64,000 nucleotides of DNA from a virus, in the IMG/VR virus record IMGVR_UViG_3300027327_000001, one strand, 5' to 3'. Shown here piece after piece: positions 2,759 to 29,717 of this stretch. The position numbers were made by a program, and so were the translations under genes. Position 1 is the stretch's first letter. Each line of letters starts with the position of its first letter. Under the pieces are notes generated by a model that saw nothing but the letters and a program-made list of their open reading frames with translations, had not been told where the DNA came from and searched no databases.

Positions 2759-3031
2759 ATGACCAAAACAGACAACCTGGACGCGAAATTGCAACTTGCT
2801 TTTCAGCGCCTGCAAGCCGCGCAAGACAACCTTGAAAACCTGCATGATGAGCTTGCCAAGTGCGGTCACGCGATAGACTCTTGGGCGATGCATGTAGGCG
2901 ATCAATCGAGTGTGCAAGCGGGCCGCGAAATATGGGCTAGCCTGACTCCTATGCAAGATGCCCTGCAAAAGCTTGCTATCGTCAACCGCAAATTTTCAAG
3001 CGCACTCGACACTTTCCAAGATCGCTCTTGA
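2759..3031 (+). CDS. hypothetical helical protein
   Basis: The ORF track gives 90 aa. A GGAGA SD lies 8 nt upstream of the ATG. This is the first gene of the early operon. Confidence 0.65.
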   Translation: MTKTDNLDAKLQLAFQRLQAAQDNLENLHDELAKCGHAIDSWAMHVGDQSSVQAGREIWASLTPMQDALQKLAIVNRKFSSALDTFQDRS

Positions 3032-3108
3032 GTCCCGCTTCACCGGCCGCCGTGCGCGGCCGGATTACCGGCACTCAACCGGACAACCAGATCAAGGAGA
3101 CAGAAAAA
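3032..3108 (+). promoter_or_regulatory. early intergenic cassette copy A (GC hairpin + ACCGG..ACCGG box + SD)
   Basis: cgcttcaCCGGCCGCcgtgcGCGGCCGGattACCGGcactcaACCGGAcaaccagatcAAGGAGA. Confidence 0.8.
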
Positions 3109-3468
3109 ATGACCAAATTACAGATTGAATTTTCAATGCTCAAATTCGCGGTGTGGGGACTGCCGCGCGTATCAATGGCGTCGATTGAAGGCGTCGATTG
3201 CGGCTATCTGTTTAACGAGCCGGGCGGCGATTGCGTATTGCCGTGCGAGAGCTTGAAGCGCATTGCAGGCGATCACAAATACCCGCCTGATTACTACAGC
3301 GCCAAGTGTTCGGCCCGTGCCGCCTGGAATACGTTGAGCGCTCGCGAGCAGTGCTATCGGCTGATGCGATCGGGAAGTTCGGCACTGGCAGACATTGCCC
3401 TGCAGTGGCTGGTCGATAACGGCCGCGATGATATTTTCGACGATATTTCACGCGAATTTGGCAACTAG
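3109..3468 (+). CDS. hypothetical protein
   Basis: ATG at 3109 (MTKLQIEF...) follows the cassette SD. The ORF-track frame 3028.. merely reads through the cassette. Confidence 0.65.
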   Translation: MTKLQIEFSMLKFAVWGLPRVSMASIEGVDCGYLFNEPGGDCVLPCESLKRIAGDHKYPPDYYSAKCSARAAWNTLSAREQCYRLMRSGSSALADIALQWLVDNGRDDIFDDISREFGN

Positions 3469-3548
3469 TGTTTCGCTTCACCGGCCGCCGCGCGCGGCCG
3501 GATTACCGGCACACTGAACCGGAAAACCAGTCAAGGAGACTAAACGAG
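3469..3548 (+). promoter_or_regulatory. early intergenic cassette copy B
   Basis: cgcttcaCCGGCCGCcgcgcGCGGCCGGattACCGGcacactgaACCGGAaaaccagtcAAGGAGA. Confidence 0.8.
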
Positions 3549-3980
3549 ATGACCAGAATAGCATATTGGACATATAACAGTGATACGCATTGCGGCCATT
3601 GCGCGCACAAGATTTTCAGCGCGCAATCTCTCTTTGAAGGAACAGCCGTAGACTCCGAAGATAATCCGGTTGTGCCCATGTTCGAACATGAAGATCATCA
3701 TCCCGACGGAGTCCATTGCGGGACCTGTTCAGAGGAATTGATGCCGTCGAGATTCCCCGGATTCATCGCTTTGAATGATCCCTACATGCAGGAGCTTATC
3801 AACGGATCCGATTGCCGCGAGTCCGCATACGCGGCCGCGCAAAAAGCAGTCAAAAAATTTCAGTATCTCGACGAGAAACTTGAAGAGCATCGGAATTACG
3901 ACTGGGACGAGAATCACGACGATTTAACCGCGACTCTCGACTGGATCGACGCATACGAGCACGCGGCGCAATCGCTCTAG
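3549..3980 (+). CDS. hypothetical Cys/His-rich (zinc-binding-like) acidic protein
   Basis: MTRIAYWTYNSDTHCGHCAHK...HCGTCSEE contains CxxC pairs. The ATG follows the cassette SD. Confidence 0.65.
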   Translation: MTRIAYWTYNSDTHCGHCAHKIFSAQSLFEGTAVDSEDNPVVPMFEHEDHHPDGVHCGTCSEELMPSRFPGFIALNDPYMQELINGSDCRESAYAAAQKAVKKFQYLDEKLEEHRNYDWDENHDDLTATLDWIDAYEHAAQSL

Positions 3981-4054
3981 TGTCCCGCTTTTCGCGCCTC
4001 AAGCGAGGCGCGATTACCGGCACATTCGACCGGACAACTGATAGGAGCTTGAAC
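3981..4054 (+). promoter_or_regulatory. early intergenic cassette copy C
   Basis: cgcttttCGCGCCTCaagcGAGGCGCGattACCGGcacattcgACCGGAcaactgatAGGAG. Confidence 0.8.
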
Positions 4055-4426
4055 ATGATAACCGCAATAAATGAAGCCAGTTTTGACTATCCGCAATCCT
4101 TGAGCCTGACTTTTTCATCGCCTCAGAAAATCGGCCGCGCTACCGTTATCCGCGTGTGTATCGACGTTGAAGGCGATCATTGCATAGTGGGCAATATCTA
4201 CCGCTTGCGCGATACTGGCGCGTTGCGCCTGACTCCCAGCGTCTCGGATATGGTTGGCAACGCGGCATATGGTCACACGGATTTTGCCCGCGCGCGCCGC
4301 GCGATAATCGAAAAGTGGGACGTGATGACGCTGGTTGAGCGCGCCGCGACACTCCTTGAGTGCGACGACTCCCGCGTCAAAAGAGCCGCTATGGACGTAT
4401 GCAGGGACTGCATGACCGACTCCTAA
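4055..4426 (+). CDS. hypothetical protein, paralog family 1
   Basis: MITAINEAS... The C-terminal region FARARRAIIEKWDVMTLVERAATLLEC resembles the products of 4518..4838 and 6212..6610. Confidence 0.65.
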   Translation: MITAINEASFDYPQSLSLTFSSPQKIGRATVIRVCIDVEGDHCIVGNIYRLRDTGALRLTPSVSDMVGNAAYGHTDFARARRAIIEKWDVMTLVERAATLLECDDSRVKRAAMDVCRDCMTDS

Positions 4427-4517
4427 AGGCGAAACCCGGCGCCGCCTGGCGCCGGTTCTAGCGCGCCTGGCGCCGCGCTACTGATGAGCCTAGCCAAGAG
4501 ATAAAGGAGACTCGACA

Positions 4518-4838
4518 ATGACCACATTCAGCCTGCACTTCACGCCTGTATTTTGCGATAGGCGCGACGGATCAAAAAGTTGCGACTTGATGATCGCGGG
4601 CCACAGCGTCGGCGCTCTAGTGCAGGAGCGCGGCGGCCATATCGACGCGACAATTGGAGTCGATGATCTGTTTGTAATGGATCGCTATGATAGCTTCACA
4701 GCGGCCCGCATGGCTATTCGTGAGCAGTGGCACGCGATGAGCATAGCCAATCGCGCGCGTGTGCTTCTCGACTGCAAGGTTTCCGCATTGCGAGAATTGG
4801 CAATCGACTACCACAGCGGCAATCTTTGCAGCTGCTAG
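4518..4838 (+). CDS. hypothetical protein, paralog family 1
   Basis: An AAGGAGA SD is present. FTAARMAIREQWHAMSIANRARVLLDC aligns with the 4055 and 6212 products. Confidence 0.65.
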   Translation: MTTFSLHFTPVFCDRRDGSKSCDLMIAGHSVGALVQERGGHIDATIGVDDLFVMDRYDSFTAARMAIREQWHAMSIANRARVLLDCKVSALRELAIDYHSGNLCSC

Positions 4839-4914
4839 AGCATCGCTTATCGGGCCGCCGCGTGCGGCCCGAAGACCGGCGCTTTAACCGGAAAACCAGA
4901 TAGGAGATAGGCAC
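4839..4914 (+). promoter_or_regulatory. early intergenic cassette copy D
   Basis: cgcttatCGGGCCGCcgcgtGCGGCCCGaagACCGGcgctttaACCGGAaaaccagatAGGAGA. Confidence 0.8.
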
Positions 4915-5262
4915 ATGAAAATCGAACCTGTAACCACTAAATCCGTAATGTCGCCTGGGGGTAGCATGACGCATGAGTCGGAATACCTATTCCCGGCTGA
5001 TGATTATGGACGGGCCGCGCTCAAAACTTTCGTCAATAGCGCCGCGCGAAAGCGAGCGCACTTTTACGCGCTGTCCGGTGTTCAGCCGCGCGTAATCGGT
5101 AGCGATGATCAAGTCTATCCCGCATTTGAAACTATCAACTTGGGCCGCCGTCAATGGACGGAATTAGCGACTAAGATTCTCACTTCGAAGTTTCGCCGGC
5201 CGCACGCGTTGCGCGTGCGCATGGTCGAGACTCAACTTTCTGTGCATGTATTCATGAACTAG
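4915..5262 (+). CDS. hypothetical protein
   Basis: ORF track, 115 aa, following the cassette SD. Confidence 0.6.
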   Translation: MKIEPVTTKSVMSPGGSMTHESEYLFPADDYGRAALKTFVNSAARKRAHFYALSGVQPRVIGSDDQVYPAFETINLGRRQWTELATKILTSKFRRPHALRVRMVETQLSVHVFMN

Positions 5263-5340
5263 TGCGTCGCTTATCGGGCCGCCGCGTGCGGCCCGAATAC
5301 CGGCACATTCGACCCGGAAAACCAGATAGGAGATTACCGA
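5263..5340 (+). promoter_or_regulatory. early intergenic cassette copy E
   Basis: cgcttatCGGGCCGCcgcgtGCGGCCCGaatACCGGcacattcgACCCGGAaaaccagatAGGAGA. The hairpin is identical to that of copy D. Confidence 0.8.
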
Positions 5341-5625
5341 ATGACCACACTGCAGCAAAAATTCGATAGGGTTTTTAGCCCTGGAGTGCCCACAAAATCG
5401 CGCGTCGAGGCGATGAACGATACCGCGATCGCGGCACTAGTGAATGAGCATGAAGGCGATGACGCGGCGCAACTGGCAGCTGCTGAAAGCGCGTGGGATA
5501 CGCTGGAGTCGAGACTTGACGATATGGACGAGTCGACTTTCGATTACGAGTTTGTCCTTGAAGACTATTACGAAGTTGAGGCGCTGATCAACGCTTTGGA
5601 TAGCCGCATTGCGCTTGACGGCTAG
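5341..5625 (+). CDS. hypothetical strongly acidic protein
   Basis: 94 aa and rich in D/E (…ESRLDDMDESTFDYEFVLEDYYEVE…). Confidence 0.6.
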   Translation: MTTLQQKFDRVFSPGVPTKSRVEAMNDTAIAALVNEHEGDDAAQLAAAESAWDTLESRLDDMDESTFDYEFVLEDYYEVEALINALDSRIALDG

Positions 5626-5700
5626 AGCATCGATCTTGGGGCGGCTGCGGCCGCCCATTGACCGGCGCTTTGACCGGATAACTCGATAGGAGAATCAAAA
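5626..5700 (+). promoter_or_regulatory. early intergenic cassette copy F
   Basis: GGGGCGGCtgcGGCCGCCCattgACCGGcgctttgACCGGAtaactcgatAGGAGA. Confidence 0.75.
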
Positions 5701-6211: not shown

Positions 6212-6610
6212 ATGACAAGATTCAACCTGCAGTTCGGCGATATTCGCCTACTGGAAAATGGCAACGAGATTATGCCAGTGGCTATCGACTCCGTCGAAAT
6301 TGGCCGCTTGATCAAGTGGCCGAACAGTTGCGTAATTCTCGAAAGTGGTGAATTGGCGCGCGTGCTGGGGCCTGAGGAGCGCAGCAATACCTTGCGCCAC
6401 TGTCTCGACTGGCAAGACGCTAAGGCGCGCTCTAGGCACTCCTGGGAGGCTATGAAAGAGCTTGAAAGAGCCGGTAGACTACTCGACGACGAAAGATATT
6501 ACGTCAAGGAGATCGGCAAGAATTTGCTTGCCGAAAGTATGATGCGCAACGGCGGCTGCACGTCGCAAGCGGCCGGCCGCGCGCTGTTGGATATCGTGTT
6601 GACGGATTAG
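6212..6610 (+). CDS. hypothetical protein, paralog family 1
   Basis: 132 aa. AKARSRHSWEAMKELERAGRLLDDE aligns with the 4055 and 4518 products. Confidence 0.6.
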   Translation: MTRFNLQFGDIRLLENGNEIMPVAIDSVEIGRLIKWPNSCVILESGELARVLGPEERSNTLRHCLDWQDAKARSRHSWEAMKELERAGRLLDDERYYVKEIGKNLLAESMMRNGGCTSQAAGRALLDIVLTD

Positions 6611-6682
6611 AGTATCGACTTTCCGGCCGCCGTGCGCGGCCGGATTGCCGGCACTTTCGACCGGACTACAGGAGATACGAGA
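6611..6682 (+). promoter_or_regulatory. early intergenic cassette copy H
   Basis: tCCGGCCGCcgtgcGCGGCCGGattgCCGGcactttcgACCGGActacAGGAGA. Confidence 0.8.
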
Positions 6683-7243
6683 ATGACAAGCAAATTTACG
6701 TTCACTTTCGCGGACGTTTACGATTGGATCGTTGCCGGCCGCGAATGGGCCGGCATGACCGGTAGCGAGGCGGCCGGCAATGCGGCAAGCGAATGGGCCG
6801 ATGAAAAGTATTCGGAATTTTGCCGCTACGGGCCGTCGCAAGACTTTGAAGACTGGATGCGCACAACCCATTTGCAAGACATTAACGGCATTGCAGCGTG
6901 GGCCGCCGATGCCGCTTTAGCTCAAGCGGATAGGGACGGCCGCTATTGGCCGTCGCAAGATCTTGTTCGAGAAAAATTTGAACAAGTCTTTGCCGATCGC
7001 GTCAATGTCGTCGACAGTTTTTGCCGTCGAGTCGTCGAATTGGCGCCAGAAATTGACGTGCAATATGCGTTCAAATATGAGCGCGACGCACTTGATAATT
7101 GCGACTCGATGCATGCCGTATATCGCGCTATCGGCAAATCTCTTTTGGTCACTCGCACGCATTGGCACGTTCTTCGAGTGCGCCAAGAACTCGAGGAGCT
7201 GGAAGAATTTGGCGACATACAGGATCGTCCTCAAGTCGCTTGA
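6683..7243 (+). CDS. hypothetical protein
   Basis: ATG at 6683 (MTSKFTFTFADVYDW...) follows the cassette SD. 186 aa. Confidence 0.65.
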   Translation: MTSKFTFTFADVYDWIVAGREWAGMTGSEAAGNAASEWADEKYSEFCRYGPSQDFEDWMRTTHLQDINGIAAWAADAALAQADRDGRYWPSQDLVREKFEQVFADRVNVVDSFCRRVVELAPEIDVQYAFKYERDALDNCDSMHAVYRAIGKSLLVTRTHWHVLRVRQELEELEEFGDIQDRPQVA

Positions 7244-7314
7244 GTCTCGCTTTCTGGACGGCTGCGGCCGTCCAGTTACCGGGACTCACCGGACAACAGA
7301 TAGGAGACTCGACA
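7244..7314 (+). promoter_or_regulatory. early intergenic cassette copy I
   Basis: CTGGACGGCtgcGGCCGTCCAGttACCGGgactcACCGGAcaacagatAGGAGA. Confidence 0.8.
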
Positions 7315-7566
7315 ATGAACAATATCGACCTGCACAACGTCAAGGCGGCCGAACTGATAAACTCTCAATGGATGGATGAGCACAAGAAAATCATAGCGGC
7401 GGCCGTCCTGGACGTTACCGAGAAGCGCCTTGCGCAAATGCCTATTCCGATAGCGACGTTCGACCACCGAGGATTTAGGCCGGCGATCAATGACGGCGGC
7501 CGCTACAGGGATCATTTGGACGATAAAATTATCCTGAACGCCTTCATTCGCGACTTGAATAGCTAG
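7315..7566 (+). CDS. hypothetical protein
   Basis: ATG at 7315 (MNNIDLHNVK...) follows the cassette SD. 83 aa. Confidence 0.6.
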   Translation: MNNIDLHNVKAAELINSQWMDEHKKIIAAAVLDVTEKRLAQMPIPIATFDHRGFRPAINDGGRYRDHLDDKIILNAFIRDLNS

Positions 7567-7646
7567 CGACTCTCGACCGGTAGGCATTGCTAGCCAGTGC
7601 CTACCAGCCGGAAGTTGAGCCGGAAAACCCAATCGGAGAACTGACA
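7567..7646 (+). promoter_or_regulatory. early intergenic cassette copy J (diverged: GCCGG..GCCGG)
   Basis: GGTAGGCAttgctagccagTGCCTACCagCCGGaagttgagCCGGAaaacccaatcGGAGA. Confidence 0.65.
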
Positions 7647-7862
7647 ATGACCAAAGCACAGATGCAGGACGAATTGAAAAAGCGCAATTGGTTCGTCGAC
7701 CGCAATCCGTATCGAAATTGGCGCTGGTGTGTCTATCGAACTGAATTTTCCGCGATAGGCGAAAAGCAAATTATTTTGTGTGAGAGCAACGGCCATAGAA
7801 CGCGATTGGCGGCGGTCGAGAACGCCATAGAACGCGGGTTCGGCGATGGCGTTGCCTGGTAA
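7647..7862 (+). CDS. hypothetical protein
   Basis: ATG at 7647 (MTKAQMQDELKKRNWF...). 71 aa. Confidence 0.6.
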   Translation: MTKAQMQDELKKRNWFVDRNPYRNWRWCVYRTEFSAIGEKQIILCESNGHRTRLAAVENAIERGFGDGVAW

Positions 7863-7941
7863 TCGACTCCCGCTCTTAGGGCCGCTTATGCGGCCCGTAG
7901 ACCGGTAGTTGAACCGGAAAAACCAAATAGGAGAATGAGCA
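7863..7941 (+). promoter_or_regulatory. early intergenic cassette copy K
   Basis: GGGCCGCttatGCGGCCCgtagACCGGtagttgaACCGGAaaaaccaaatAGGAGA. Confidence 0.8.
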
Positions 7942-8382
7942 ATGACATTGCAACTAACAGAAAACTTGAGCGCAATTTTTGAGCGCGCAAAAACGGGAAT
8001 CGCGGCCGATTTTGCCGGTAAAGTTACCGGCGATGATACGGGAAATTTTGACTGGAAATGTGCCGACGCATGGGCGAATTTTGCGCCCGGTGAAGCGCCT
8101 CCGACGTTGGAATACGCCAACGGAATCGAAAGATTCGAGTTTGCCGACGGAAGCGCGATCGTCGCTGATTGCTTGACTTGGGAATACGGATTCAATGGCG
8201 ATGATTGCAGCGACAAGGAATTGATCGCGGCCGTTGTGGATGCGGAAAAAAGTTTCGCAGCGTTCATCGGCGAAACATATCCGGCGAAACGCGATCCGAA
8301 CGAATATTGGCCGGATAGCGAATTTACGGAAGGCGATCCCGCGTTCACCTTCCCGACGTTTTTGTGGCCCGCGTTCGGCTAG
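7942..8382 (+). CDS. hypothetical protein with an RFxFxDGS-type domain
   Basis: 146 aa. IERFEFADGSAIVADCLTWEYGFNG resembles the repeated domain in the 35449..37047 proteins. Confidence 0.65.
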   Translation: MTLQLTENLSAIFERAKTGIAADFAGKVTGDDTGNFDWKCADAWANFAPGEAPPTLEYANGIERFEFADGSAIVADCLTWEYGFNGDDCSDKELIAAVVDAEKSFAAFIGETYPAKRDPNEYWPDSEFTEGDPAFTFPTFLWPAFG

Positions 8383-8396
8383 TGGATGGATGACGC

Positions 8397-8426
8397 TTGC
8401 GCGTAACCGCAAAAGCATGGTAGAAT
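8397..8426 (+). promoter_or_regulatory. candidate internal sigma70-like promoter with extended -10
   Basis: TTGCGC (8397-8402), 18 nt, then tgg-TAGAAT (8421-8426). This junction lacks the hairpin/ACCGG cassette. Confidence 0.4.
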
Positions 8427-8451
8427 GAACCGAATCATAGGAGACTCAAAC

Positions 8452-8790
8452 ATGACCACAGAAATTCCGGCACTCAAACTCAACGATAAGACGATGCAGG
8501 ATGAAGTTAACGCGGCGCCAACGCTGTATGAGAAAATCGACGCGGCGGCCGGCAAGCTTTGGCAAGTGGATGCTAAAGCGCATGAATGCACGGGCGCGCT
8601 GGAGTCAGCGCTTAGCGAAGATTTTGCGAGTATCGAAGCGTATCTAGTCGAACTGGAAAATATGCAGGAACCGCGGTTTTTGGATGCGGTTATCCAGTCC
8701 GTAACGGACAACTTCGGCGAATATGTCACGTCCGAATGTATGCCAGAAATAAGAATATTCGTCGCCAAAGTTACCGAACACGAGCTTTAG
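8452..8790 (+). CDS. hypothetical acidic protein
   Basis: ATG at 8452 (MTTEIPALKLND...) follows an AGGAGA SD. 112 aa. Confidence 0.6.
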   Translation: MTTEIPALKLNDKTMQDEVNAAPTLYEKIDAAAGKLWQVDAKAHECTGALESALSEDFASIEAYLVELENMQEPRFLDAVIQSVTDNFGEYVTSECMPEIRIFVAKVTEHEL

Positions 8791-8863
8791 AATCTCGCTT
8801 TTCGGGCCGTTGCGGCGGCCCGATTACCGGGACTCTACCGGATGAAGGAAAAGGAAACAGAAA
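8791..8863 (+). promoter_or_regulatory. early intergenic cassette copy L
   Basis: cgcttttCGGGCCGttgcggCGGCCCGattACCGGgactctACCGGAtgaAGGAAAAGGAAA. Confidence 0.8.
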
Positions 8864-9331
8864 ATGGAATTGATTAAAATATCGCTGAATGACGAAATCG
8901 CTACCCGATTGATAAACGAAAAGGATGATCTCGACGAGCGCATTGAAAAGGTGAAGGAAATTCAAGACTCCATGCTAAGAGAAATTGAAGATATGGAGTG
9001 CGACGAAGATCCGCGCTTTGACGCGCTGGATCAAGATTTGTCATGGATTGGTGATTACCTGATCGAACTGCGAGCCGTCGAGTCCTATTGGAAGGCGCTT
9101 CAAGCCAATAGCGACTTCCGGCCATGCCATTTTCCGGGCCCGCTTGCGCGCGTGCAAGGCGAACAGCGCGACAGCGACGGCGACGCAAACGTTTTCGACG
9201 TGCTAGTTGAAGCGGACAATTACGAGTCGGCGAAAAAGGCGGCCGATGAGTTTCTTCGCTACAGTTCCGATGCGAATATCTGCTACCAGTGCAGCGACTG
9301 CACAGAAATTATTGTGACGCTCTACAACTAG
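8864..9331 (+). CDS. hypothetical acidic protein
   Basis: 155 aa and D/E-rich in the N-terminal half. A C-terminal CxxCxxC is present (CYQCSDC). Confidence 0.6.
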   Translation: MELIKISLNDEIATRLINEKDDLDERIEKVKEIQDSMLREIEDMECDEDPRFDALDQDLSWIGDYLIELRAVESYWKALQANSDFRPCHFPGPLARVQGEQRDSDGDANVFDVLVEADNYESAKKAADEFLRYSSDANICYQCSDCTEIIVTLYN

Positions 9332-9402
9332 AATCTCGCTTTCCTTGCCGCGCGCGGCAAGGTTACCGGGATTTTCCGGACAACAACTAGGAGACTGAAA
9401 AA
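9332..9402 (+). promoter_or_regulatory. early intergenic cassette copy M
   Basis: cgctttCCTTGCCGCgcGCGGCAAGGttACCGGgattttCCGGAcaacaactAGGAGA. Confidence 0.8.
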
Positions 9403-10514: not shown

Positions 10515-10933
10515 AAATAAATCTAAAAGACAAAGGCGCCATTGGAAGCGCATTGATCAAAAACTGGAACGAGGGAGAATACAACGTTAGAGTCTGGGGC
10601 GTTTATGAACTCCGTGACATGGTAGAAGACGCAGATCAAAAACTGGACGAACTCGGACTTATTGATCTTGATCGGAAGCACGGCCGCGATTGCGATTGCC
10701 GCCTAGTCGCTCAATGCTGCACTGGCGCGCATTTCGGCGGCAATAATAGGATCGTTCAAAAGGTTACGATAAAGCGCGAAAAATATACCTGGTTTCTAAC
10801 GCGGATAGAAGCTTCGGAGCTTCCGAACGGCCAATGGCCGCAATTCAAAATTTTCCTTAGCCAAGCGCAAATCGACAGAGCGCAAAAAATGCTTCTCGAA
10901 CACCTGAAAATATTTGTGGACGGAACCGAATGA
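10511..10933 (+). CDS. hypothetical protein, paralog family 2
   Basis: The GTG start overlaps the upstream TGA (GTGA). 140 aa (…QKLDELGLID…DCRLV…TWFLTRIEAS…). Confidence 0.65.
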   Translation: MKINLKDKGAIGSALIKNWNEGEYNVRVWGVYELRDMVEDADQKLDELGLIDLDRKHGRDCDCRLVAQCCTGAHFGGNNRIVQKVTIKREKYTWFLTRIEASELPNGQWPQFKIFLSQAQIDRAQKMLLEHLKIFVDGTE

Positions 10934-11008
10934 TCGTCGCTTTGGGAACCGGTTCGCCGGTTCCTGAACCGGCGATTATGCCGGACAACTGATTACAGGA
11001 GACTAAAA
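10934..11008 (+). promoter_or_regulatory. early intergenic cassette copy N
   Basis: cgctttGGGAACCGGttcgCCGGTTCCtgaACCGGcgattatgCCGGAcaactgattacAGGAGA. Confidence 0.75.
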
Positions 11009-11200
11009 ATGCAAATGACCAAAGCCTTGAACTTGAACGCGATCGCGGTTCCCTATCAACCGCTTATGGCGGATCGCCTTGCCGAACTCGAATTGCTGCA
11101 TGAATTTGGCTTTGCCAGTCGTCGAGACGTGAAGGAGCTCAAGCATCTTCAGGGGCTTACTCGGACGATTGAGAGAGAGCAGGAAGAATCCTACCACTAA
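11009..11200 (+). CDS. hypothetical small protein
   Basis: 63 aa, following the cassette SD. Confidence 0.55.
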   Translation: MQMTKALNLNAIAVPYQPLMADRLAELELLHEFGFASRRDVKELKHLQGLTRTIEREQEESYH

Positions 11201-11279
11201 TAGCAAGTGCCGCTTTCCGGGCCGCTTAGGCGGCCCGTCGACCGGCGCTTTGACCGGAAAACCCATAGGAGAACTGAAA
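11201..11279 (+). promoter_or_regulatory. early intergenic cassette copy O
   Basis: cgctttCCGGGCCGCttagGCGGCCCGtcgACCGGcgctttgACCGGAaaacccatAGGAGA. Confidence 0.8.
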
Positions 11280-13337: not shown

Positions 13338-13366
13338 AAAAGGCGGCCATGTGCCGCCTTTTTTCA
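13338..13366. terminator. intrinsic terminator between convergent operons
   Basis: aaAGGCGGCcatgtGCCGCCTtttttc. It has a T-run on plus and an A-run upstream, so it is usable on both strands. Confidence 0.75.
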
Positions 13367-13534
13367 TATCAAGCCTTCTTCGTAGGCAAAATCTTCTCTT
13401 ACGAATAGGATCAAATGATCGCGATGGGCTATCTCGCTATGCGGCACAAAAAGGATCTCCTGGTCGATCCGGACAAGCAGGCCTTTCGGCGTTTCCCGCT
13501 GCACTTCGTCAATGTTGATCTCGACTTCATTCAC
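13364..13534 (-). CDS. hypothetical small protein (56 aa, below the ORF-track cutoff)
   Basis: The GTG at 13534 overlaps the TGA of the upstream gene (GTGA). Hand translation: (M)NEVEINIDEVQRETPKGLLVRIDQEILFVPHSEIAHRDHLILFVREDFAYEEGLI. Confidence 0.4.
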   Translation of the reverse strand: MNEVEINIDEVQRETPKGLLVRIDQEILFVPHSEIAHRDHLILFVREDFAYEEGLI

Positions 13535-13962
13535 CGCTTGATTCCTTTCTTTGGGTAGGCGATCGCCTTGGCCGCTGGATCGTAGCGGCCGTTGAAAATA
13601 AATTCAATGCACTGCAAGGCGGTTCCGTCTCGAACCATGCGAGACGATACCCGGAGCACTTTAAATCCTAGCAAGATAGCTTCCGCGGCGCGCCTGCAAT
13701 CGTAGTCGATGCCGTCGACGCGCTGGTGACTGCCTGGCTTGCCGTATTTCGCGCCGTCAATCTCGACCAGCAACTTGGGGCCGGCCCGGAGCTTGGCATG
13801 AAGCGTTTCGCGATCCAAATTTTTGCCCAGCACGCTTTCGTAATCTCGAACCAAAAAATCGGCCCGAAAATTCTTCCGCGGATGAAATTGGTATTGCCGT
13901 TCGTAGTAGAATTTGGTCGCGTGCTTCAATTGGAATTCAAGCTCGTCTTCGTTTTTGCTCAT
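13531..13962 (-). CDS. DUF559/Vsr-like endonuclease-fold protein
   Basis: FRADFLV...LLVEIDGAKYGKPGSHQRVDGIDYDCRRAAEAILLGFKVLRV matches the ADF..VE.DG..H....D..R...L..G..VLR pattern of Vsr/DUF559 PD-(D/E)xK proteins. It lies in the same operon as a C5 MTase. Confidence 0.55.
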   Translation of the reverse strand: MSKNEDELEFQLKHATKFYYERQYQFHPRKNFRADFLVRDYESVLGKNLDRETLHAKLRAGPKLLVEIDGAKYGKPGSHQRVDGIDYDCRRAAEAILLGFKVLRVSSRMVRDGTALQCIEFIFNGRYDPAAKAIAYPKKGIKR

Positions 13963-13976
13963 GTCGGCCTCTCTAT

Positions 13977-14124
13977 GGATGGCGCCAGCCGTTCTAAAAT
14001 TTTCAAGTAGGATGGCGCCAGCCGTTCTAAAAATTAGGATGGGCGCAGCCAGTCTAAAAATTTTTTAAGGATGGCGCCAGCCGTTCTAAAAATTCTGATA
14101 GGGATGGCGCCAGCCGTTCTAAAA
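13977..14124. repeat. array of five 23-bp direct repeats GGATGGCGCCAGCCGTTCTAAAA (iteron-like)
   Basis: Copies start at 13977, 14010, 14037 (degenerate), 14069 and 14102. The period is 27-33 bp, with AT-rich spacers of 4-10 bp. Each copy contains the palindrome TGGCGCCA. Confidence 0.9.
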
Positions 14125-14143
14125 TTTCGGGAACGCTGGTTTT

Positions 14144-14218
14144 TGGCTCCGGCGGCAGGTCTCGAACCTGCGACCGATTGATTAACAGTCAATTGCTCTA
14201 CCGCTGAGCTACGCCGGA
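14144..14218 (-). tRNA. tRNA-Asn (anticodon GUU), CCA encoded
   Basis: Hand fold: acceptor UCCGGCG/CGCCGGA, D arm GCUC-AGCGGUA-GAGC, anticodon arm AUUGA-CUGUUAA-UCAAU, variable CGGUC, T arm GCAGG-UUCGAGA-CCUGC, discriminator G, CCA. Confidence 0.9.
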
Positions 14219-14260
14219 ACGAAAGCGAGTCTAGCTTGGGATTTGTCTTGTGTAAATTAT

Positions 14261-14283
14261 GGATGGCGCCAGCCGTTCTAAAA
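14261..14283. repeat. sixth copy of the 23-bp repeat, on the other side of the tRNA
   Basis: A perfect GGATGGCGCCAGCCGTTCTAAAA that overlaps the TAG stop of the C5 MTase gene. Confidence 0.9.
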
Positions 14284-15690
14284 TTTTTGGGCCGGCGGCG
14301 CATCCTCATCTTTTTTTTGCGCAATAGGAATTCCATGCTTGCTCCAAACTTCATCCATGAGCTTGATTCGATGGCCGAGCCAGTTCATGCAATTTACGGC
14401 CATCGAGTTGCCGAGAATCGCGTAGCGCCTGGTCTTGGGCATTGGCTTGCCGCGGTGCTCGACAAGCGTGTAGTTGTCGGGGAATCCGAAAAGCCGCTCG
14501 ACTTCAAGAGGCGTGAGCTTGCGGACAACGTAACCGTCCGTGATGGCGATATAGCCTTGGCCGGGAGCTCCGCCGGGCTTGTTGATTGACGGCGTTATCT
14601 CGCCGTCGCCACCGGCAAGCCGCACGTGTCCCTGCTGGTTCTGCGCGAACGCCACGGCCTGCGGCGGATTGCCCGTGTCGATGGTTCCACTAACGCCCTC
14701 CCACGCGCCGAAGCTCGATTGCCTTGCCTGGAATGCGACTGCCTGAGGATGCCCGGTTTGACACGTGTAAGCGGCTTCGTCTTCGCGCCAGCCATTGCCG
14801 TTCGGAGAGGATTTGGGATTGGTTCTATCCGCCTTTTCATGGATGGCGACGACCTTCTGCACGATTAGGTGACCTTCCCGCCCTCTCTTGTCCGCCTTCA
14901 TATGTCCCACAATTGCGGGGGAAACGGGTTGGCATGCAGTTTCTTGGCACTCGTCTTCTGCCGGACCGCCGCCGCCTTTCGCCGACTGCGCCGTGACCGC
15001 TTCGCAGACTCCAGGCTCTGCGACTCCGTCGCCCGCTTCAAGCCCGCTATTTTCCTCAGAACCGTATCCAAGAAACCCGGCAGTTTCCTGCCTTCTTTTT
15101 CTGCGCGGTGGATGATGCCTCTGCATGCTCTCCCGCTCAAATAATACTCCCGCAGGTGCTCGCCAGTCACTTCCAAGACATCCAACAACGAAGACACGCC
15201 GTCGCTGCTGGGGGACGGCACGAGGGTGTGATTGAACTCGGATATATTGAGAGTCGAAGATTCTGTAGCTGAGACTATACCCGCATTTAACCATCGCCCC
15301 GAGGATGGTTCCAAACGCCCGTCCTCCGTCCATTGACAGGAGTCCGGGGACATTTTCCCACAAAAACCATCTTGGTTGTAGTCGAGAAAGAATTTCCACA
15401 TAGGTGAGTGATAGGTTGCCACGCGGGTCATCCAGGCCACCGCGTCCTCCTGCGATGGAGTAGGACTGGCAGGGGGTTCCTCCAACAAGAACGTCAATTG
15501 ATTTTCGGTCATCCGACAGCCTTTCTAAAAGAGTAGTCATGTCGCCGTAGTTCGGGACGTCGGGATAGTAGTGATTTAGCAGCGAGCAGCAATGCGGATC
15601 CACTTCGGCAAAGAATTGCGGCTCCCAGCCAAGCGGTTCCCATGCGACGGTAGCTGCCTCTATCCCAGAGCAGACGGAGCCGTATTTCAT
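14278..15690 (-). CDS. dcm: DNA (cytosine-5) methyltransferase
   Basis: Motif I is GSVCSGIEA, motif IV GGTPCQSYS, motif VI WENVPGLLS and motif VIII PQQRRRVFVVG. Motif IX is RKLTPLEVERLFGFPDNYT and motif X RYAILGNSMAVN. Confidence 0.9.
   Translation of the reverse strand: MKYGSVCSGIEAATVAWEPLGWEPQFFAEVDPHCCSLLNHYYPDVPNYGDMTTLLERLSDDRKSIDVLVGGTPCQSYSIAGGRGGLDDPRGNLSLTYVEILSRLQPRWFLWENVPGLLSMDGGRAFGTILGAMVKCGYSLSYRIFDSQYIRVQSHPRAVPQQRRRVFVVGCLGSDWRAPAGVLFERESMQRHHPPRRKRRQETAGFLGYGSEENSGLEAGDGVAEPGVCEAVTAQSAKGGGGPAEDECQETACQPVSPAIVGHMKADKRGREGHLIVQKVVAIHEKADRTNPKSSPNGNGWREDEAAYTCQTGHPQAVAFQARQSSFGAWEGVSGTIDTGNPPQAVAFAQNQQGHVRLAGGDGEITPSINKPGGAPGQGYIAITDGYVVRKLTPLEVERLFGFPDNYTLVEHRGKPMPKTRRYAILGNSMAVNCMNWLGHRIKLMDEVWSKHGIPIAQKKDEDAPPAQKF
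14898..15512 (-). CDS. nested alternative-frame ORF (204 codons) inside the C5 MTase gene; coding status uncertain
   Basis: This same-strand ORF overlaps MTase motifs IV-VIII. Its translation is protein-like (…CQWTEDGRLEPSSGRWLNAG…TLNISEF…SSLLDVLEVTGEHLREYYLSGRACRGIIHRAEKEGRKLP…). See findings. Confidence 0.3.
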   Translation of the reverse strand: MTENQLTFLLEEPPASPTPSQEDAVAWMTRVATYHSPMWKFFLDYNQDGFCGKMSPDSCQWTEDGRLEPSSGRWLNAGIVSATESSTLNISEFNHTLVPSPSSDGVSSLLDVLEVTGEHLREYYLSGRACRGIIHRAEKEGRKLPGFLDTVLRKIAGLKRATESQSLESAKRSRRSRRKAAAVRQKTSAKKLHANPFPPQLWDI

Positions 15691-15962
15691 TTAAATTGCT
15701 TTTCTTTCGCGCTGGCGGCGATGGCACTTCGGATTTTTCTCTTGATTTCGTTCAGAGTCGAGCCATTTTGACGCAATGCATGGGAAATATGATCGTCTTC
15801 GTAGTAAAAGCGATCTGGCCCGCTAATCCATCTTTCGGACCTGTCTTTGGGCTTACTGTTTTTCATGACAATTCCGATATGAACATTCAAGCCCGCATGT
15901 TTAAGATAAATCTGATGAACCGTGGCCGTAAAAAAATGGAATCTTATGCATGATTTTGGCAT
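15687..15962 (-). CDS. small protein, tandem paralog 5 of 5 (most diverged)
   Basis: 91 aa. It shares …H/P.G(I/Y)… and the C-terminal L.EIKRKIRSAI with its neighbours. An ATGA overlap joins it to the MTase start. Confidence 0.6.
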   Translation of the reverse strand: MPKSCIRFHFFTATVHQIYLKHAGLNVHIGIVMKNSKPKDRSERWISGPDRFYYEDDHISHALRQNGSTLNEIKRKIRSAIAASAKEKQFK

Positions 15963-16228
15963 TACTGAGCTCCCTTCTCCTTCATGCTCGCGCCGACCTG
16001 CATTCTGATCTCGAATTTGAGATCATTCAAATTCCAATGCTGGTCGAAGAGGACAGAAGGATCGAAATATGGCGACAAATGTTCCGTTGGACGGCTTTTC
16101 CAACCGGTGAATGTCTTCTCGATTAATCCTATTGGAACGTCCAAGCCGCGCTCGCGCATGTAAATACGCCAATTGCCGGAAGCCGCTTCGCGCTTGAATT
16201 CTATTGTTCTTTTCGGATGAATCGACAT
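15962..16228 (-). CDS. small protein, tandem paralog 4 of 5
   Basis: 88 aa: …VPIGLIEKTFTGWKSRP…LNDLKFEIRMQV…. Confidence 0.65.
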   Translation of the reverse strand: MSIHPKRTIEFKREAASGNWRIYMRERGLDVPIGLIEKTFTGWKSRPTEHLSPYFDPSVLFDQHWNLNDLKFEIRMQVGASMKEKGAQ

Positions 16229-16229
16229 G

Positions 16230-16496
16230 CTACTTTCCCGTCTCCTTCAGGGTTTCTAGGATCGCCGCCTTAACCTTGCGCTTCAATTCCGGCAGGGTTT
16301 TGGCCTCCTGGAAAATAACGTCAGCGTCGAAAAACTCCGATTTCGTTATTATAGAAGTGCTGCTCCATCCGCCTCCCCATTGCTTAATGCAATAGCCGAC
16401 AGGCATGAGCATGCCGCCCTCGTCTACGAGAATAGATTCAACGCCTAATTCGCCCATAGTCTCGAAGGTGACTCTTTTCTTGGGATTCTTGGACAT
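16230..16496 (-). CDS. small protein, tandem paralog 3 of 5
   Basis: 88 aa: …MPVGYCIKQWGGGWSS…LPELKRKVKAAILE…. Confidence 0.65.
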   Translation of the reverse strand: MSKNPKKRVTFETMGELGVESILVDEGGMLMPVGYCIKQWGGGWSSTSIITKSEFFDADVIFQEAKTLPELKRKVKAAILETLKETGK

Positions 16497-16497
16497 G

Positions 16498-16758
16498 CTA
16501 GTTTCCTTTCTGTTTCATGCTGTCCGCGATCGTGGCTCTGACTTTGCGCTTGAGTCCGTTCAGTGTGCGGTCGTAAAGGAAAAGATCTCGATAGTCGTAA
16601 AGCTCTGACGTTTCTGTCGGCCTGCTGCTCCATCCGCCTCCCCAATCTCGACTGCAGAAGCCGACCGGAATCATCATGTCGCCATCACGCAGTAAAATAT
16701 CGTGAACACTTAACTGTTGGAATTCGAATACGACTTTCAATTTGCGGCGCACGGCCAT
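16498..16758 (-). CDS. small protein, tandem paralog 2 of 5
   Basis: 86 aa: …IPVGFCSRDWGGGWSS…LNGLKRKVRATIAD…. Confidence 0.65.
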   Translation of the reverse strand: MAVRRKLKVVFEFQQLSVHDILLRDGDMMIPVGFCSRDWGGGWSSRPTETSELYDYRDLFLYDRTLNGLKRKVRATIADSMKQKGN

Positions 16759-16759
16759 G

Positions 16760-17026
16760 CTAAGCTCCTCTGTTCGTCATCAAGCCTTGCGCGATCGCTT
16801 CTCGGACCTTGCGCTTGAGTCCGTTCAGAGTCCGGTCATGACAGTAAAGCACCTTATAGTTTTGAAACTTTACATTTTTTATCGGCTCGCTTCGCCATCC
16901 TCTCCAATCACGACAGCAATAACCTACCGGCCAACTCATTTCACCGTCGTCGATGAAAATTTCGTAAGTGCGGGACACTACTGCGTCCCGCTTGAATACA
17001 ACTTTCGTTTTGCGGCTTGCGGCCAT
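16760..17026 (-). CDS. small protein, tandem paralog 1 of 5
   Basis: 88 aa: …WPVGYCCRDWRGWRSE…LNGLKRKVREAIAQ…. Confidence 0.65.
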   Translation of the reverse strand: MAASRKTKVVFKRDAVVSRTYEIFIDDGEMSWPVGYCCRDWRGWRSEPIKNVKFQNYKVLYCHDRTLNGLKRKVREAIAQGLMTNRGA

Positions 17027-27842: not shown

Positions 27843-27960
27843 GCAACGCACCGCAATTCTTTATTTCGGACTGCCGGCGCAATATGTCGAAGCCGAGCGC
27901 GAAAATGCGCACAATATAGATCTTTTTTTCTCTATACGGGCTAAATTCCGCTAAAAGCAC

Positions 27961-28073
27961 TTGCAACAAGCGAAAAATTTATTATTTTTTAGTTACCTTC
28001 GATTGCTGACTGGTCATTGGCGCGAAGTCTCCCCTGGCCGGCGTAGCCACCTACGCCGGCCAGATTATTTTTG
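27961..28073 (+). ncRNA. candidate small RNA (promoter-like element plus strong intrinsic terminator, no ORF)
   Basis: TTGCAA (27961-27966), 16 nt, then TATTTT (27983-27988). A perfect 13-bp hairpin follows: ctggccggcgtag-ccac-ctacgccggccag at 28034-28063, followed by attattttt. Confidence 0.3.
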
Positions 28074-29626: not shown

Positions 29627-29717
29627 GACAACCGAATTGCGTTTTAGAGACCTAAACGCGACAGTCGTTCAGCTTGGCCACAAAATTGACGACGTTACAT
29701 CGGATGACGACGAATGA
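29544..29717 (+). CDS. hypothetical small coiled-coil protein (57 aa, below the ORF-track cutoff)
   Basis: Hand translation: MTKRERLRLKESMQEICRQLDVMRVEAKTTELRFRDLNATVVQLGHKIDDVTSDDDE. Its TGA overlaps the ATG of the MTase (ATGA). Confidence 0.35.
   Translation: MTKRERLRLKESMQEICRQLDVMRVEAKTTELRFRDLNATVVQLGHKIDDVTSDDDE

Follow-up and report, generated by a model that had tools for sequence, protein, structure and literature searches.

An array of six 23-bp units, located at positions 13,977 to 14,283 of the viral DNA IMGVR_UViG_3300027327_000001 (a stretch of 64,000 nucleotides, analyzed at full length and referred to here as the window), is tentatively read as a set of operator or roadblock sites on DNA, which would govern transcription across the junction between a C5 cytosine DNA methyltransferase (MTase) gene, a tRNA-Asn gene, and a small nuclease gene. 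Judged from sequence features, this function is possible rather than probable; it is the most economical reading of the locus, alternatives at the RNA level are live, and a function as replication origin is unsupported. The window covers most of the genome of a lambda-like siphophage of ~75.2 kb, which has been assembled repeatedly from marine-sponge metagenomes as contigs of 75,239 to 75,286 bp; MKWU00000000 belongs to studies of Aplysina, Petrosia, and Sarcotragus sponges (PMC5099237, PMC5649159). The array is real and not an assembly artifact, because nine loci from independent assemblies carry it in identical form.

The unit GGATGGCGCCAGCCGTTCTAAAA (23 bp) occurs exactly at five positions on the plus strand, starting at 13977, 14010, 14069, 14102, and 14261, while 100 dinucleotide-preserving shuffles contained no exact match. 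A sixth unit, at positions 14037 to 14059, reads GGATGGGCGCAGCCAGTCTAAAA and differs from the others at 5 of 23 positions, so that of the five copies assigned to 13977 to 14124 in the first-pass annotation four are exact and one is degenerate. All six units have the same orientation, and Tandem Repeats Finder lists the array as the top-scoring tandem repeat in the window (score 151). In the direction of transcription, i.e., on the minus strand, the unit reads TTTTAGAACGGCTGGCGCCATCC. Every exact unit holds a 14-bp near-dyad, GGaTGGCGCCAgCC, which is symmetric at 12 of 14 positions and has a perfect 8-bp palindrome inside; in each unit the dyad is followed by an asymmetric 9-bp tail, GTTCTAAAA. 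The palindrome had been ascribed to each copy, which is correct for the five exact ones, whereas the degenerate copy has TGGGCGCA in place of TGGCGCCA. Specifically, the changes in this copy 3 affect the three central base pairs of the dyad and two positions of the tail, with GGATGG, CAGCC, and TCTAAAA retained, and its covariance-model score is 28 bits. Dimeric helix-turn-helix sites typically vary at the center and keep their outer blocks; the restriction of the dyad changes in copy 3 to the three central pairs fits a site of this kind.

The spacers within the cluster of five (TTTTCAAGTA, ATTA, ATTTTTTAA, and ATTCTGATAG) are A+T-rich, as had been noted before, 4 to 10 bp long, and mutually unrelated in both sequence and length. 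Five identical 23-bp cores beside unrelated spacers therefore indicate constraint or homogenization, since slippage would have copied the spacers as well; the pattern implies that the cores are recognized in a sequence-specific manner. The periods within the cluster are 33, 27, 32, and 33 bp. The period of roughly three helical turns described earlier is approached by three of the steps, but the 27-bp step (2.57 turns) is out of phase. Copies 6 and 5 are separated by 159 bp, corresponding to 15.1 helical turns, and enclose the promoter and the tRNA gene. The location of copy 6 beyond the tRNA gene and across the MTase stop codon, and the distance of 14 nt between the last copy and the nuclease start codon, were both as annotated. 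Inside the 3' coding end of the MTase gene, a degenerate inverted copy of the unit was observed at positions 14281 to 14308 (minus strand; 15 bits, E = 0.86), possibly by chance; together with copy 6, it forms an imperfect palindrome centered on AAAATTTTT.

The flanking genes and the tRNA gene all lie on the minus strand, in the order MTase, copy 6, promoter, tRNA, copies 5 to 1, ribosome-binding site, and nuclease ATG. The predicted transcription start of the promoter is located a few nucleotides before the tRNA, and copy 6 ends 4 nt upstream of the −35 element. The locus thus shows what is expected of an operator, a dyad-symmetric specific sequence (12 of 14 positions) repeated at a promoter region. 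The array had originally been interpreted as either iterons or operators; a recognition array fits the data, and it is because copy 6 lies so close to the −35 element of the best promoter in the region that the operator variant gains some support, while the iteron variant, discussed below, found no backing. In the mechanism that we propose, the six units would be double-stranded DNA sites for one sequence-specific protein, probably a dimer, which would read the 14-bp dyad together with the asymmetric tail. One site would abut the −35 element of the tRNA-Asn promoter, and five would cover the 150 bp from the tRNA to the ribosome-binding site that precedes the nuclease gene. In its occupied state, the array would serve as operator or roadblock and limit transcription from the MTase operon and the tRNA promoter into a potentially harmful nuclease gene; it could also modulate the tRNA promoter, and copy 6 could cooperate with copies 4 and 5 via a 159-bp loop of ~15 helical turns. 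Identical cores, the dyad, restriction to a single locus, and the placement of copy 6 next to the tRNA promoter are all explained by this mechanism. Moreover, the downstream gene codes for a nuclease whose catalytic residues are intact, and genes of this kind are kept under tight control by phages. Whereas the layout of the array, its occurrence at one genomic locus, the constraint on the cores, and the promoter position are shown by the sequence, we infer that the ligand is a protein and that its target is DNA rather than RNA, and likewise the direction of the regulatory effect.

The motif was confined to this one locus. No further copies of the unit were found in the rest of the window by a mismatch (Hamming) scan and a covariance model run with filters off, nor in 9.85 kb of the genome beyond it, which brings the coverage to ~74 kb of the ~75-kb genome; the earlier statement that the motif does not recur in the window is thereby borne out. 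Exact and degenerate motif searches of IMG/VR gave no match, a 21-mer of the unit is absent from 185,579 GTDB species genomes, and blastn searches of the motif against PLSDB and INPHARED were equally negative. The many dispersed copies that would mark the unit as a generic repeat did not appear, and a dispersed repeat resembling repetitive extragenic palindromes or miniature inverted-repeat transposable elements is ruled out by the lack of scattered copies in ~74 kb of the phage and in the databases searched. One orientation and a single locus in ~74 kb rather suit a local regulator. When the tandem core was used as query (TGGCGCCAGCC...TGGCGCCAGCC), at least 119 matches were obtained from metagenomes and 5 from IMG/VR; those listed were all unrelated coding repeats or other hairpin arrays, and in them the stem extended past the pattern at chance level, except for one freshwater family of 32-bp repeats. 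The latter, an unrelated family, consists of tandem arrays of two to four copies of CTTCTTTGGCGCCAGCCAAAGAAGCATCAGAA, a perfect hairpin with a 10-bp stem, on at least six contigs (JGI Ga0247834, Ga0247837). The spacing had been called too tight for a CRISPR array, and we agree: with spacers of 4 to 10 bp instead of ~26 to 40 bp, no match to an Rfam CRISPR direct-repeat family at E ≤ 1, and no 21-mer in the GTDB species genomes, both a CRISPR array and solitary CRISPR-like repeats were rejected.

Several points weigh against operator sites. No DNA-binding family was detected among ~45 proteins scanned with Pfam and PHROG, so that the cognate protein was not found among them, and five adjacent paralogues of ~88 amino acids (aa) have a predicted fold without match in the PDB. 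No promoter lies downstream of copies 1 to 5, so that a roadblock or an effect from a distance is all that they could provide. The spacing of 33, 27, 32, and 33 bp is not uniformly in helical phase. Both stem mismatches in an alternative pairing register of the unit are G·U on the plus strand, for which the chance of an accident is estimated at ~1 in 18, and a DNA-binding model predicts neither these strand-specific pairs nor the plus-strand hairpin with a run of five T residues that follows copy 5. Finally, searches with protein anchors identified no relative carrying the locus: the best MTase homologue is 46% identical and has no array downstream, the best DUF5131 homologue (52% identical) occurs in nonsyntenic contexts, no relatives of the RepA-like NTPase or of the 88-aa paralogues were found in IMG/VR, and a TerL search of GTDB genomes gave no match. 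The 11 phage copies that were fetched are 100% identical. Because no relatives carry the locus and no polymorphism exists, comparisons of covariation, synteny, and polymorphism are impossible, which is the main limit on all conclusions drawn here.

Table. Coordinates and properties of the repeat units and of other features in the window
Feature	Position	Strand	Remarks
Copy 1, exact	13977–13999		14 nt upstream of nuclease ATG
Copy 2, exact	14010–14032		33 bp after copy 1
Copy 3, degenerate (GGATGGGCGCAGCCAGTCTAAAA)	14037–14059		18/23 identical; weaker hairpin, −6.5 kcal/mol
Copy 4, exact	14069–14091		
Copy 5, exact	14102–14124		Copy closest to tRNA 3' end
Copy 6, exact	14261–14283		Contains C5 MTase TAG stop (14280–14278)
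Terminator-like hairpin, CCAGCCGTTC / GAACGCTGG, then TTTTT	14110–14144	+	−11.5 kcal/mol, T5, in centroid structure
tRNA-Asn, anticodon GTT, encoded CCA end	14144–14218	−	ARAGORN; Rfam, 71 bits
σ70-like promoter, TTTACA-17-TAGACT	14228–14256	−	Position weight matrix (PWM) score 12.3, top in 13.3–14.4 kb
C5 cytosine DNA MTase, 470 aa	14278–15690	−	Target-recognition domain uncharacterized
Nuclease, 143 aa, Vsr/DUF559/EDxHD fold	13531–13962	−	ATG at 13962
Bidirectional intrinsic terminator, AAAAGGCGGCCATGTGCCGCCTTTTTT	13338–13363		Convergence point
77-nt element copies	3028–3107, 3466–3546, 3978–4055, 4836–4914, 5260–5340	+	
77-nt element copies	5623–5700, 6608–6689, 7240–7314, 7863–7941	+	
77-nt element copies	8788–8864, 9329–9401, 10930–11009, 11205–11279	+	
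Weak 77-nt element copy	7566–7646		
Type II hammerhead ribozyme	4427–4499	+	44.8 bits; Rfam gathering threshold, 37

The alternative register, missed in the first-pass annotation, forms a 7-bp hairpin, GGAUGGC-GCCA-GCCGUUC, in the unit. Two of its pairs are not of the Watson-Crick type, being G·U on the plus strand but A·C on the minus strand, and the folding energy of the unit is −10.2 to −12.7 kcal/mol on the plus strand compared with −4.0 kcal/mol on the minus strand; in the degenerate copy the register is shifted, but folding persists (−6.5 kcal/mol). The terminator-like hairpin at 14110 to 14144 pairs the right arm of copy 5 with a partial inverted copy (14131 to 14139), carries its T5 tract on the plus strand only, and is among the ~ten best terminator-like sites in 128 kb (both strands). 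These properties speak for a reading of the array as a structured plus-strand RNA of ~200 nt, antisense to the nuclease leader, in which five near-identical hairpins with 7- to 9-bp stems and GCCA loops would be joined by A/U-rich linkers and would end at the U5 hairpin. Such an RNA could sequester a hairpin-binding protein as a decoy (sponge) or repress the nuclease mRNA as a cis-acting antisense transcript; as a variant, the hairpins could be a fail-safe barrier to read-through before the tRNA and the MTase operon. The use of plus-strand-specific RNA structures elsewhere in this phage, namely, 13 covarying stem-loops and a hammerhead ribozyme, adds to this side. We nonetheless consider a plus-strand RNA rather unlikely. 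No convincing promoter was found, the best candidate (ATGAAA-19-TAGAAT, 13882 to 13912) scoring 10, a value equaled by 56 sites in the window, and the strong bidirectional terminator already closes the plus-strand operon ~600 bp before the array. Copy 6 lies beyond the tRNA, would belong to a different transcript, and is left unexplained, and sequence identity is not required of a purely structural RNA. Rfam, with its CRISPR direct-repeat, Csr, and Rsm families, gave no match, and the GGA of the unit is buried in the stem, unlike in CsrA-bound sites, which speaks against a CsrA sponge. Measured against Csr/Rsm-type RNAs, the array has a terminator-like 3' end and a GGA, though a paired one, in every unit, and neither a significant promoter nor an Rfam match. 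In its boldest form, the proposal is that of a noncoding decoy RNA gene which would titrate a hairpin-recognizing protein of the host, a sponge symbiont rich in defense systems, and silence the nuclease by antisense pairing; a Cas6-type enzyme processing CRISPR RNA or another RNA-binding defense or regulatory factor would be candidate targets. We regard this as improbable.

Structure in the sense RNA offers a further explanation. The minus-strand RNA from 14300 to 13950 folds at −116 kcal/mol (z = −4.2 versus shuffles), with a 17-bp stem that pairs the copy 6 region with 14143 to 14123 and encloses the tRNA, and with copies 5/1 and 4/2 forming nested stems; on this strand, the piece at 14131 to 14139 has two possible partners, the 5' half of copy 5 and copy 6, the latter pairing enclosing the tRNA. 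Pairing between units, tRNA-enclosing stems, and a folded 5' untranslated region of the nuclease mRNA could thus be the functional entities, the stems being RNase III-type processing sites, cleavage at which would free the tRNA and determine how stable the nuclease mRNA is and how well it is translated. Transcription in this direction is certain, since the region separates the nuclease gene from the tRNA promoter, and RNA processing elements punctuate the plus-strand operon of this phage. However, a strong fold score is expected from any array of near-palindromes, single units are weak (−4 kcal/mol, with two A·C mismatches), pairing between units suffers two C·U mismatches per 14 bp, and no covariation comparison can be made, so that an action in the sense RNA seems unlikely to us. 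A programmed frameshift at the MTase stop codon, suggested by a slippery A_AAU_UUU, was rejected as an overinterpretation; the downstream hairpin is weak in the sense direction.

The readings at the RNA level stay alive because the phage relies heavily on RNA-level punctuation. An element of ~77 nt occurs in nearly every gap between plus-strand genes from 3.0 to 11.3 kb, in 13 copies. Its layout comprises the upstream stop codon TAG, CGCTT, a two-tier G+C-rich stem-loop, ACCGG, a short variable stretch, CCGGA-AAC, an AGGAGA Shine-Dalgarno sequence, and ATG. A covariance model, R1, built from eight copies found five more, and the 13 members score 56 to 90 bits. In total, 93% of the cells pair, changes on both sides occur in 13 of 18 pairs, and none of 500 shuffles attained the observed values; sliding the partners collapses the covariation signal. 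On the plus strand, G·U or U·G combinations predominate at two of the pairs (in 9 of 13 and 8 of 12 sequences), which makes the structure specific to this strand. Neither Rfam nor the IMG/VR loci scanned contained a match to the element. Its form resembles that of the RNase III processing sites of T7, and it may act in RNA processing or antitermination. One gap of the same stretch without the element is occupied by the type II hammerhead ribozyme, whose CUGAUGAG and GAAA cores are intact. Together, the 13 covarying stem-loops and the hammerhead suggest a systematic RNA processing of the phage operon, possibly a more valuable lead than the array. The leader of the tRNA-Asn, CTAGACTCGCTTTCG (14219 to 14233, minus strand), repeats the 5' part of the element (TAGAATCTCGCTTTCC), with the tRNA occupying the position where the element has its hairpin. 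Like the 77-nt family, the array units have a T-rich lead-in before a G+C-rich stem of 7 bp with a 4-nt loop, but they lack the outer stem and the ACCGG...CCGGA tail and form weak hairpins in the sense direction. Their best match outside the array is one member of the family (17 of 23 positions identical, oriented alike with respect to local transcription; shuffle P ~0.13). Membership of the units in this family was ruled out, model R1 finding nothing in 13.9 to 14.3 kb at E ≤ 10.

The gene at the end of the array, described as Vsr-like in the first-pass annotation, has the fold this term implies. Pfam yields a sub-threshold DUF559 match alone, whereas the AlphaFold model (mean predicted local distance difference test [pLDDT], 79) has as its two best PDB matches 3hrl, a DUF559-like endonuclease, and 3r3p, the catalytic domain of the homing endonuclease I-Bth0305I, both with a probability of 1.0 and a target-normalized TM-score of 0.69. 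Residues D35, E67, D69, H79, and D83, among others, are invariant in the family alignment, and the catalytic residues are intact. Eleven homologues share 47 to 58% identity. Those whose contexts were examined are located in unrelated phage surroundings, e.g., between tail genes, and none lies beside an MTase gene, a tRNA gene, or a repeat array. Judging by these unrelated contexts, the 143-aa gene behaves as a mobile endonuclease gene of the free-standing homing type, and it is probably by accident that it is paired with the MTase. The MTase itself matches HhaI and HaeIII in its catalytic domain alone, so that its specificity cannot be inferred from sequence; GGCGCC is not avoided in the window (53 sites versus ~28 expected). 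Directly upstream of the MTase gene, five tandem paralogous genes (15687 to 17026, minus strand) encode proteins of 86 to 91 aa that are 24 to 47% identical. The fold predicted for an 88-aa member is confident (pLDDT 85), with a β-sheet and a C-terminal helix, and the paralogues have no significant PDB match by fold search and belong to no Pfam or PHROG family.

The mobile nature of the nuclease gene bears on the notion that the array has no present function and is a remnant of recombination or cassette shuffling around the nuclease and the tRNA, kept uniform by gene conversion. The region is lineage specific, and the direct repeats flank the tRNA like an inserted cassette. Identical cores beside fully diverged spacers are, however, hard to obtain without selection, and copy number does not vary among 11 independent assemblies; of the explanations weighed here, a remnant seems to us the least credible.

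Nor are the units readily explained as tandem weak promoters or as a partition site of the plasmid type, both of which, taken together, we hold to be very unlikely. In the sense direction, each unit starts with TTTAGA, a TA-containing hexamer follows 15 to 17 bp on (CATAAT, TAATTT, and others), and PWM scores reach 7.9 to 8.9 for two copies, yet no unit passes the consensus promoter scan, and the hexamer TAGAAC of the units lacks the final T needed for a −10 element. Promoter-bearing intergenic repeats have been reported for the halovirus HF2 (PMC8707807). A σ54 promoter was rejected separately, the unit having GTTC where the −12 element needs TTGC. As to partition, direct repeats that each contain an inverted repeat also make up centromeres of the F sopC type, but no ParA or ParB gene was found in the proteins scanned, and a terminase of the lambda cos type is encoded 14 kb away. 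The same terminase module led to the rejection of a cos or pac site, and attP arm sites were rejected because no integrase was found in the regions scanned.

A role in replication, the other half of the original interpretation, would make the units iterons for a phage initiator, as part of an origin or of a distal enhancer like P4 crr; the RepA-like AAA_25 NTPase, the DnaG-type primase, and the helicase would be the partners. These three genes are indeed present, at a distance of 5.6 to 9.4 kb (6 to 9 kb in the first-pass annotation), in a minus-strand replication and recombination operon (19.9 to 27.8 kb) that also encodes a PD-(D/E)XK nuclease and an SbcC-like ATPase and continues without gap via DUF5131 and the five 88-aa paralogues to the 470-aa C5 MTase; a link of this module to an origin in the array found no backing. 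As in iteron origins, which have three or more direct repeats of ~17 to 23 bp in one orientation, there are six 23-bp units (five exact) in one orientation, with A+T-rich spacers and phased A-tracts. The array is the strongest tandem repeat in the window and the sole six-copy array in the sequence examined, and the replication genes lie nearby on the same strand. Plasmid origins can have split iteron clusters, which the 5+1 layout recalls. A search for features specific to origins gave none, however, and nothing argues for a distal replication element beyond the repeats themselves. No A+T-rich unwinding block adjoins the array, which has 47% G+C and is outside the 12 most A+T-rich 60-bp windows; these lie elsewhere, e.g., at 911 to 970 and 27941 to 28000. 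No DnaA box (TTATCCACA, within one mismatch) is found near the array, although the box of the host may differ. No initiator gene contains or adjoins the array, its neighbors being the MTase, the tRNA, the nuclease, and small proteins of unknown function, and neither an initiator nor a partition gene was detected among the neighboring proteins scanned. The spacing is irregular, and the location between a tRNA and a mobile nuclease is an apparent accessory region. Moreover, the array coincides with the cumulative GC-skew maximum beside convergent transcription, whereas the skew minimum and a divergent intergenic (promoter) region are located at ~27.8 to 28.3 kb, immediately upstream of the replication genes. 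As a variant of the same idea, the units could form a polar barrier to replication forks in the zone of convergence. A replication cis-element is, in our estimate, about as improbable as the decoy RNA.

Further observations concern other parts of the genome. The lambda-like head module, located just beyond the window start, encodes the GpA terminase, gpW, portal, S49 protease, and gpE capsid proteins. In addition to tail genes, the genome has a gene for a tape-measure protein (54095 to 63292, minus strand), which comprises 3,065 aa and implies an unusually long tail. A second DNA MTase of 831 aa is encoded at 29714 to 32209 on the plus strand. At 1336 to 1556 and 1590 to 1900, three 32-nt repeats with the inverted repeat GCACTCGACG..GAGTGC are accompanied by several TTTGTTC repeats close by; this gene-poor region near the start of the plus-strand genes has the look of a main regulatory switch. 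The A+T content of the window peaks at 853 to 1081 (23% G+C at 911 to 970), in the divergent gap beside the gene located before the terminase genes; this stretch contains AAAAAATGATG twice and a palindrome of G/C runs and is a candidate for a cos site or an early-promoter region. Between 7315 and 8790, the map of longest open reading frames (ORFs) gives minus-strand ORFs at 7590 to 8348 and 8379 to 8768, whereas public gene calls and the positions of the 77-nt element point to plus-strand genes at ~7315 to 7566, 7942 to 8382, and 8452 to 8790 instead.

If the operator or roadblock function is true, the array would illustrate in compact form how a mobile nuclease gene and a tRNA gene are shielded by a phage from the long operon that precedes them, and it would point to an unrecognized DNA-binding protein among the unannotated genes of a phage of sponge symbionts. 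If instead an RNA function is true, a multihairpin decoy or antisense regulator would be added to the short list of phage noncoding RNAs. The locus is small and unique, and on present evidence it is an unexplained, regulatory-looking repeat rather than a surprising new system.

Compared with known systems, the array shares with the F sopC and ParB/ParR centromeres the tandem direct repeats that each contain an inverted repeat, but no partition genes were found here, and the genome is that of a cos-packaging lambda-like siphophage. The ~20-bp direct repeats in one orientation, the split clusters, and the primase and helicase genes in the genome are reminiscent of lambda ori, RK2 oriV, and P4 ori/crr, and the lambda iterons have internal dyad symmetry as well; the array differs from these origins by the lack of an unwinding element, host-factor boxes, and a linked initiator gene, by irregular periods of 27 to 33 bp instead of ~22 bp, and by a position that is terminus-like in terms of skew and transcription. 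Plus-strand stem-loops, A/U-rich linkers, and a terminal intrinsic terminator are features in common with CsrB/RsmZ and with the RNA anti-CRISPRs of phages, which are solitary CRISPR-like repeats, the Racrs being single units downstream of a promoter (PMC10651486). The setting is similar, too: the array comes from sponge microbiomes, which have been reported to be rich in CRISPR and other defense genes (PMC5099237). In contrast to these RNAs, the GGA of the array is in the stem and not in the loop, neither an Rfam match nor a promoter was detected, no CRISPR repeat resembling the unit was found, and the array has several units instead of the single one of the Racrs. The operators of lambda (OR/OL), gal (OE-OI), and lac (O1-O3) differ from the array in that classical sites vary in affinity while five sites are identical here, in that the units carry asymmetric 9-bp tails, are all in one orientation, and lie, for five of them, in the leader rather than over the promoter, and in that no repressor gene was found for the array. 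With these operators, however, the array has in common short dyad-symmetric sites separated by A+T-rich spacers, one site that abuts a promoter, and a second group of sites at a distance of integral helical turns (159 bp) with the promoter enclosed.

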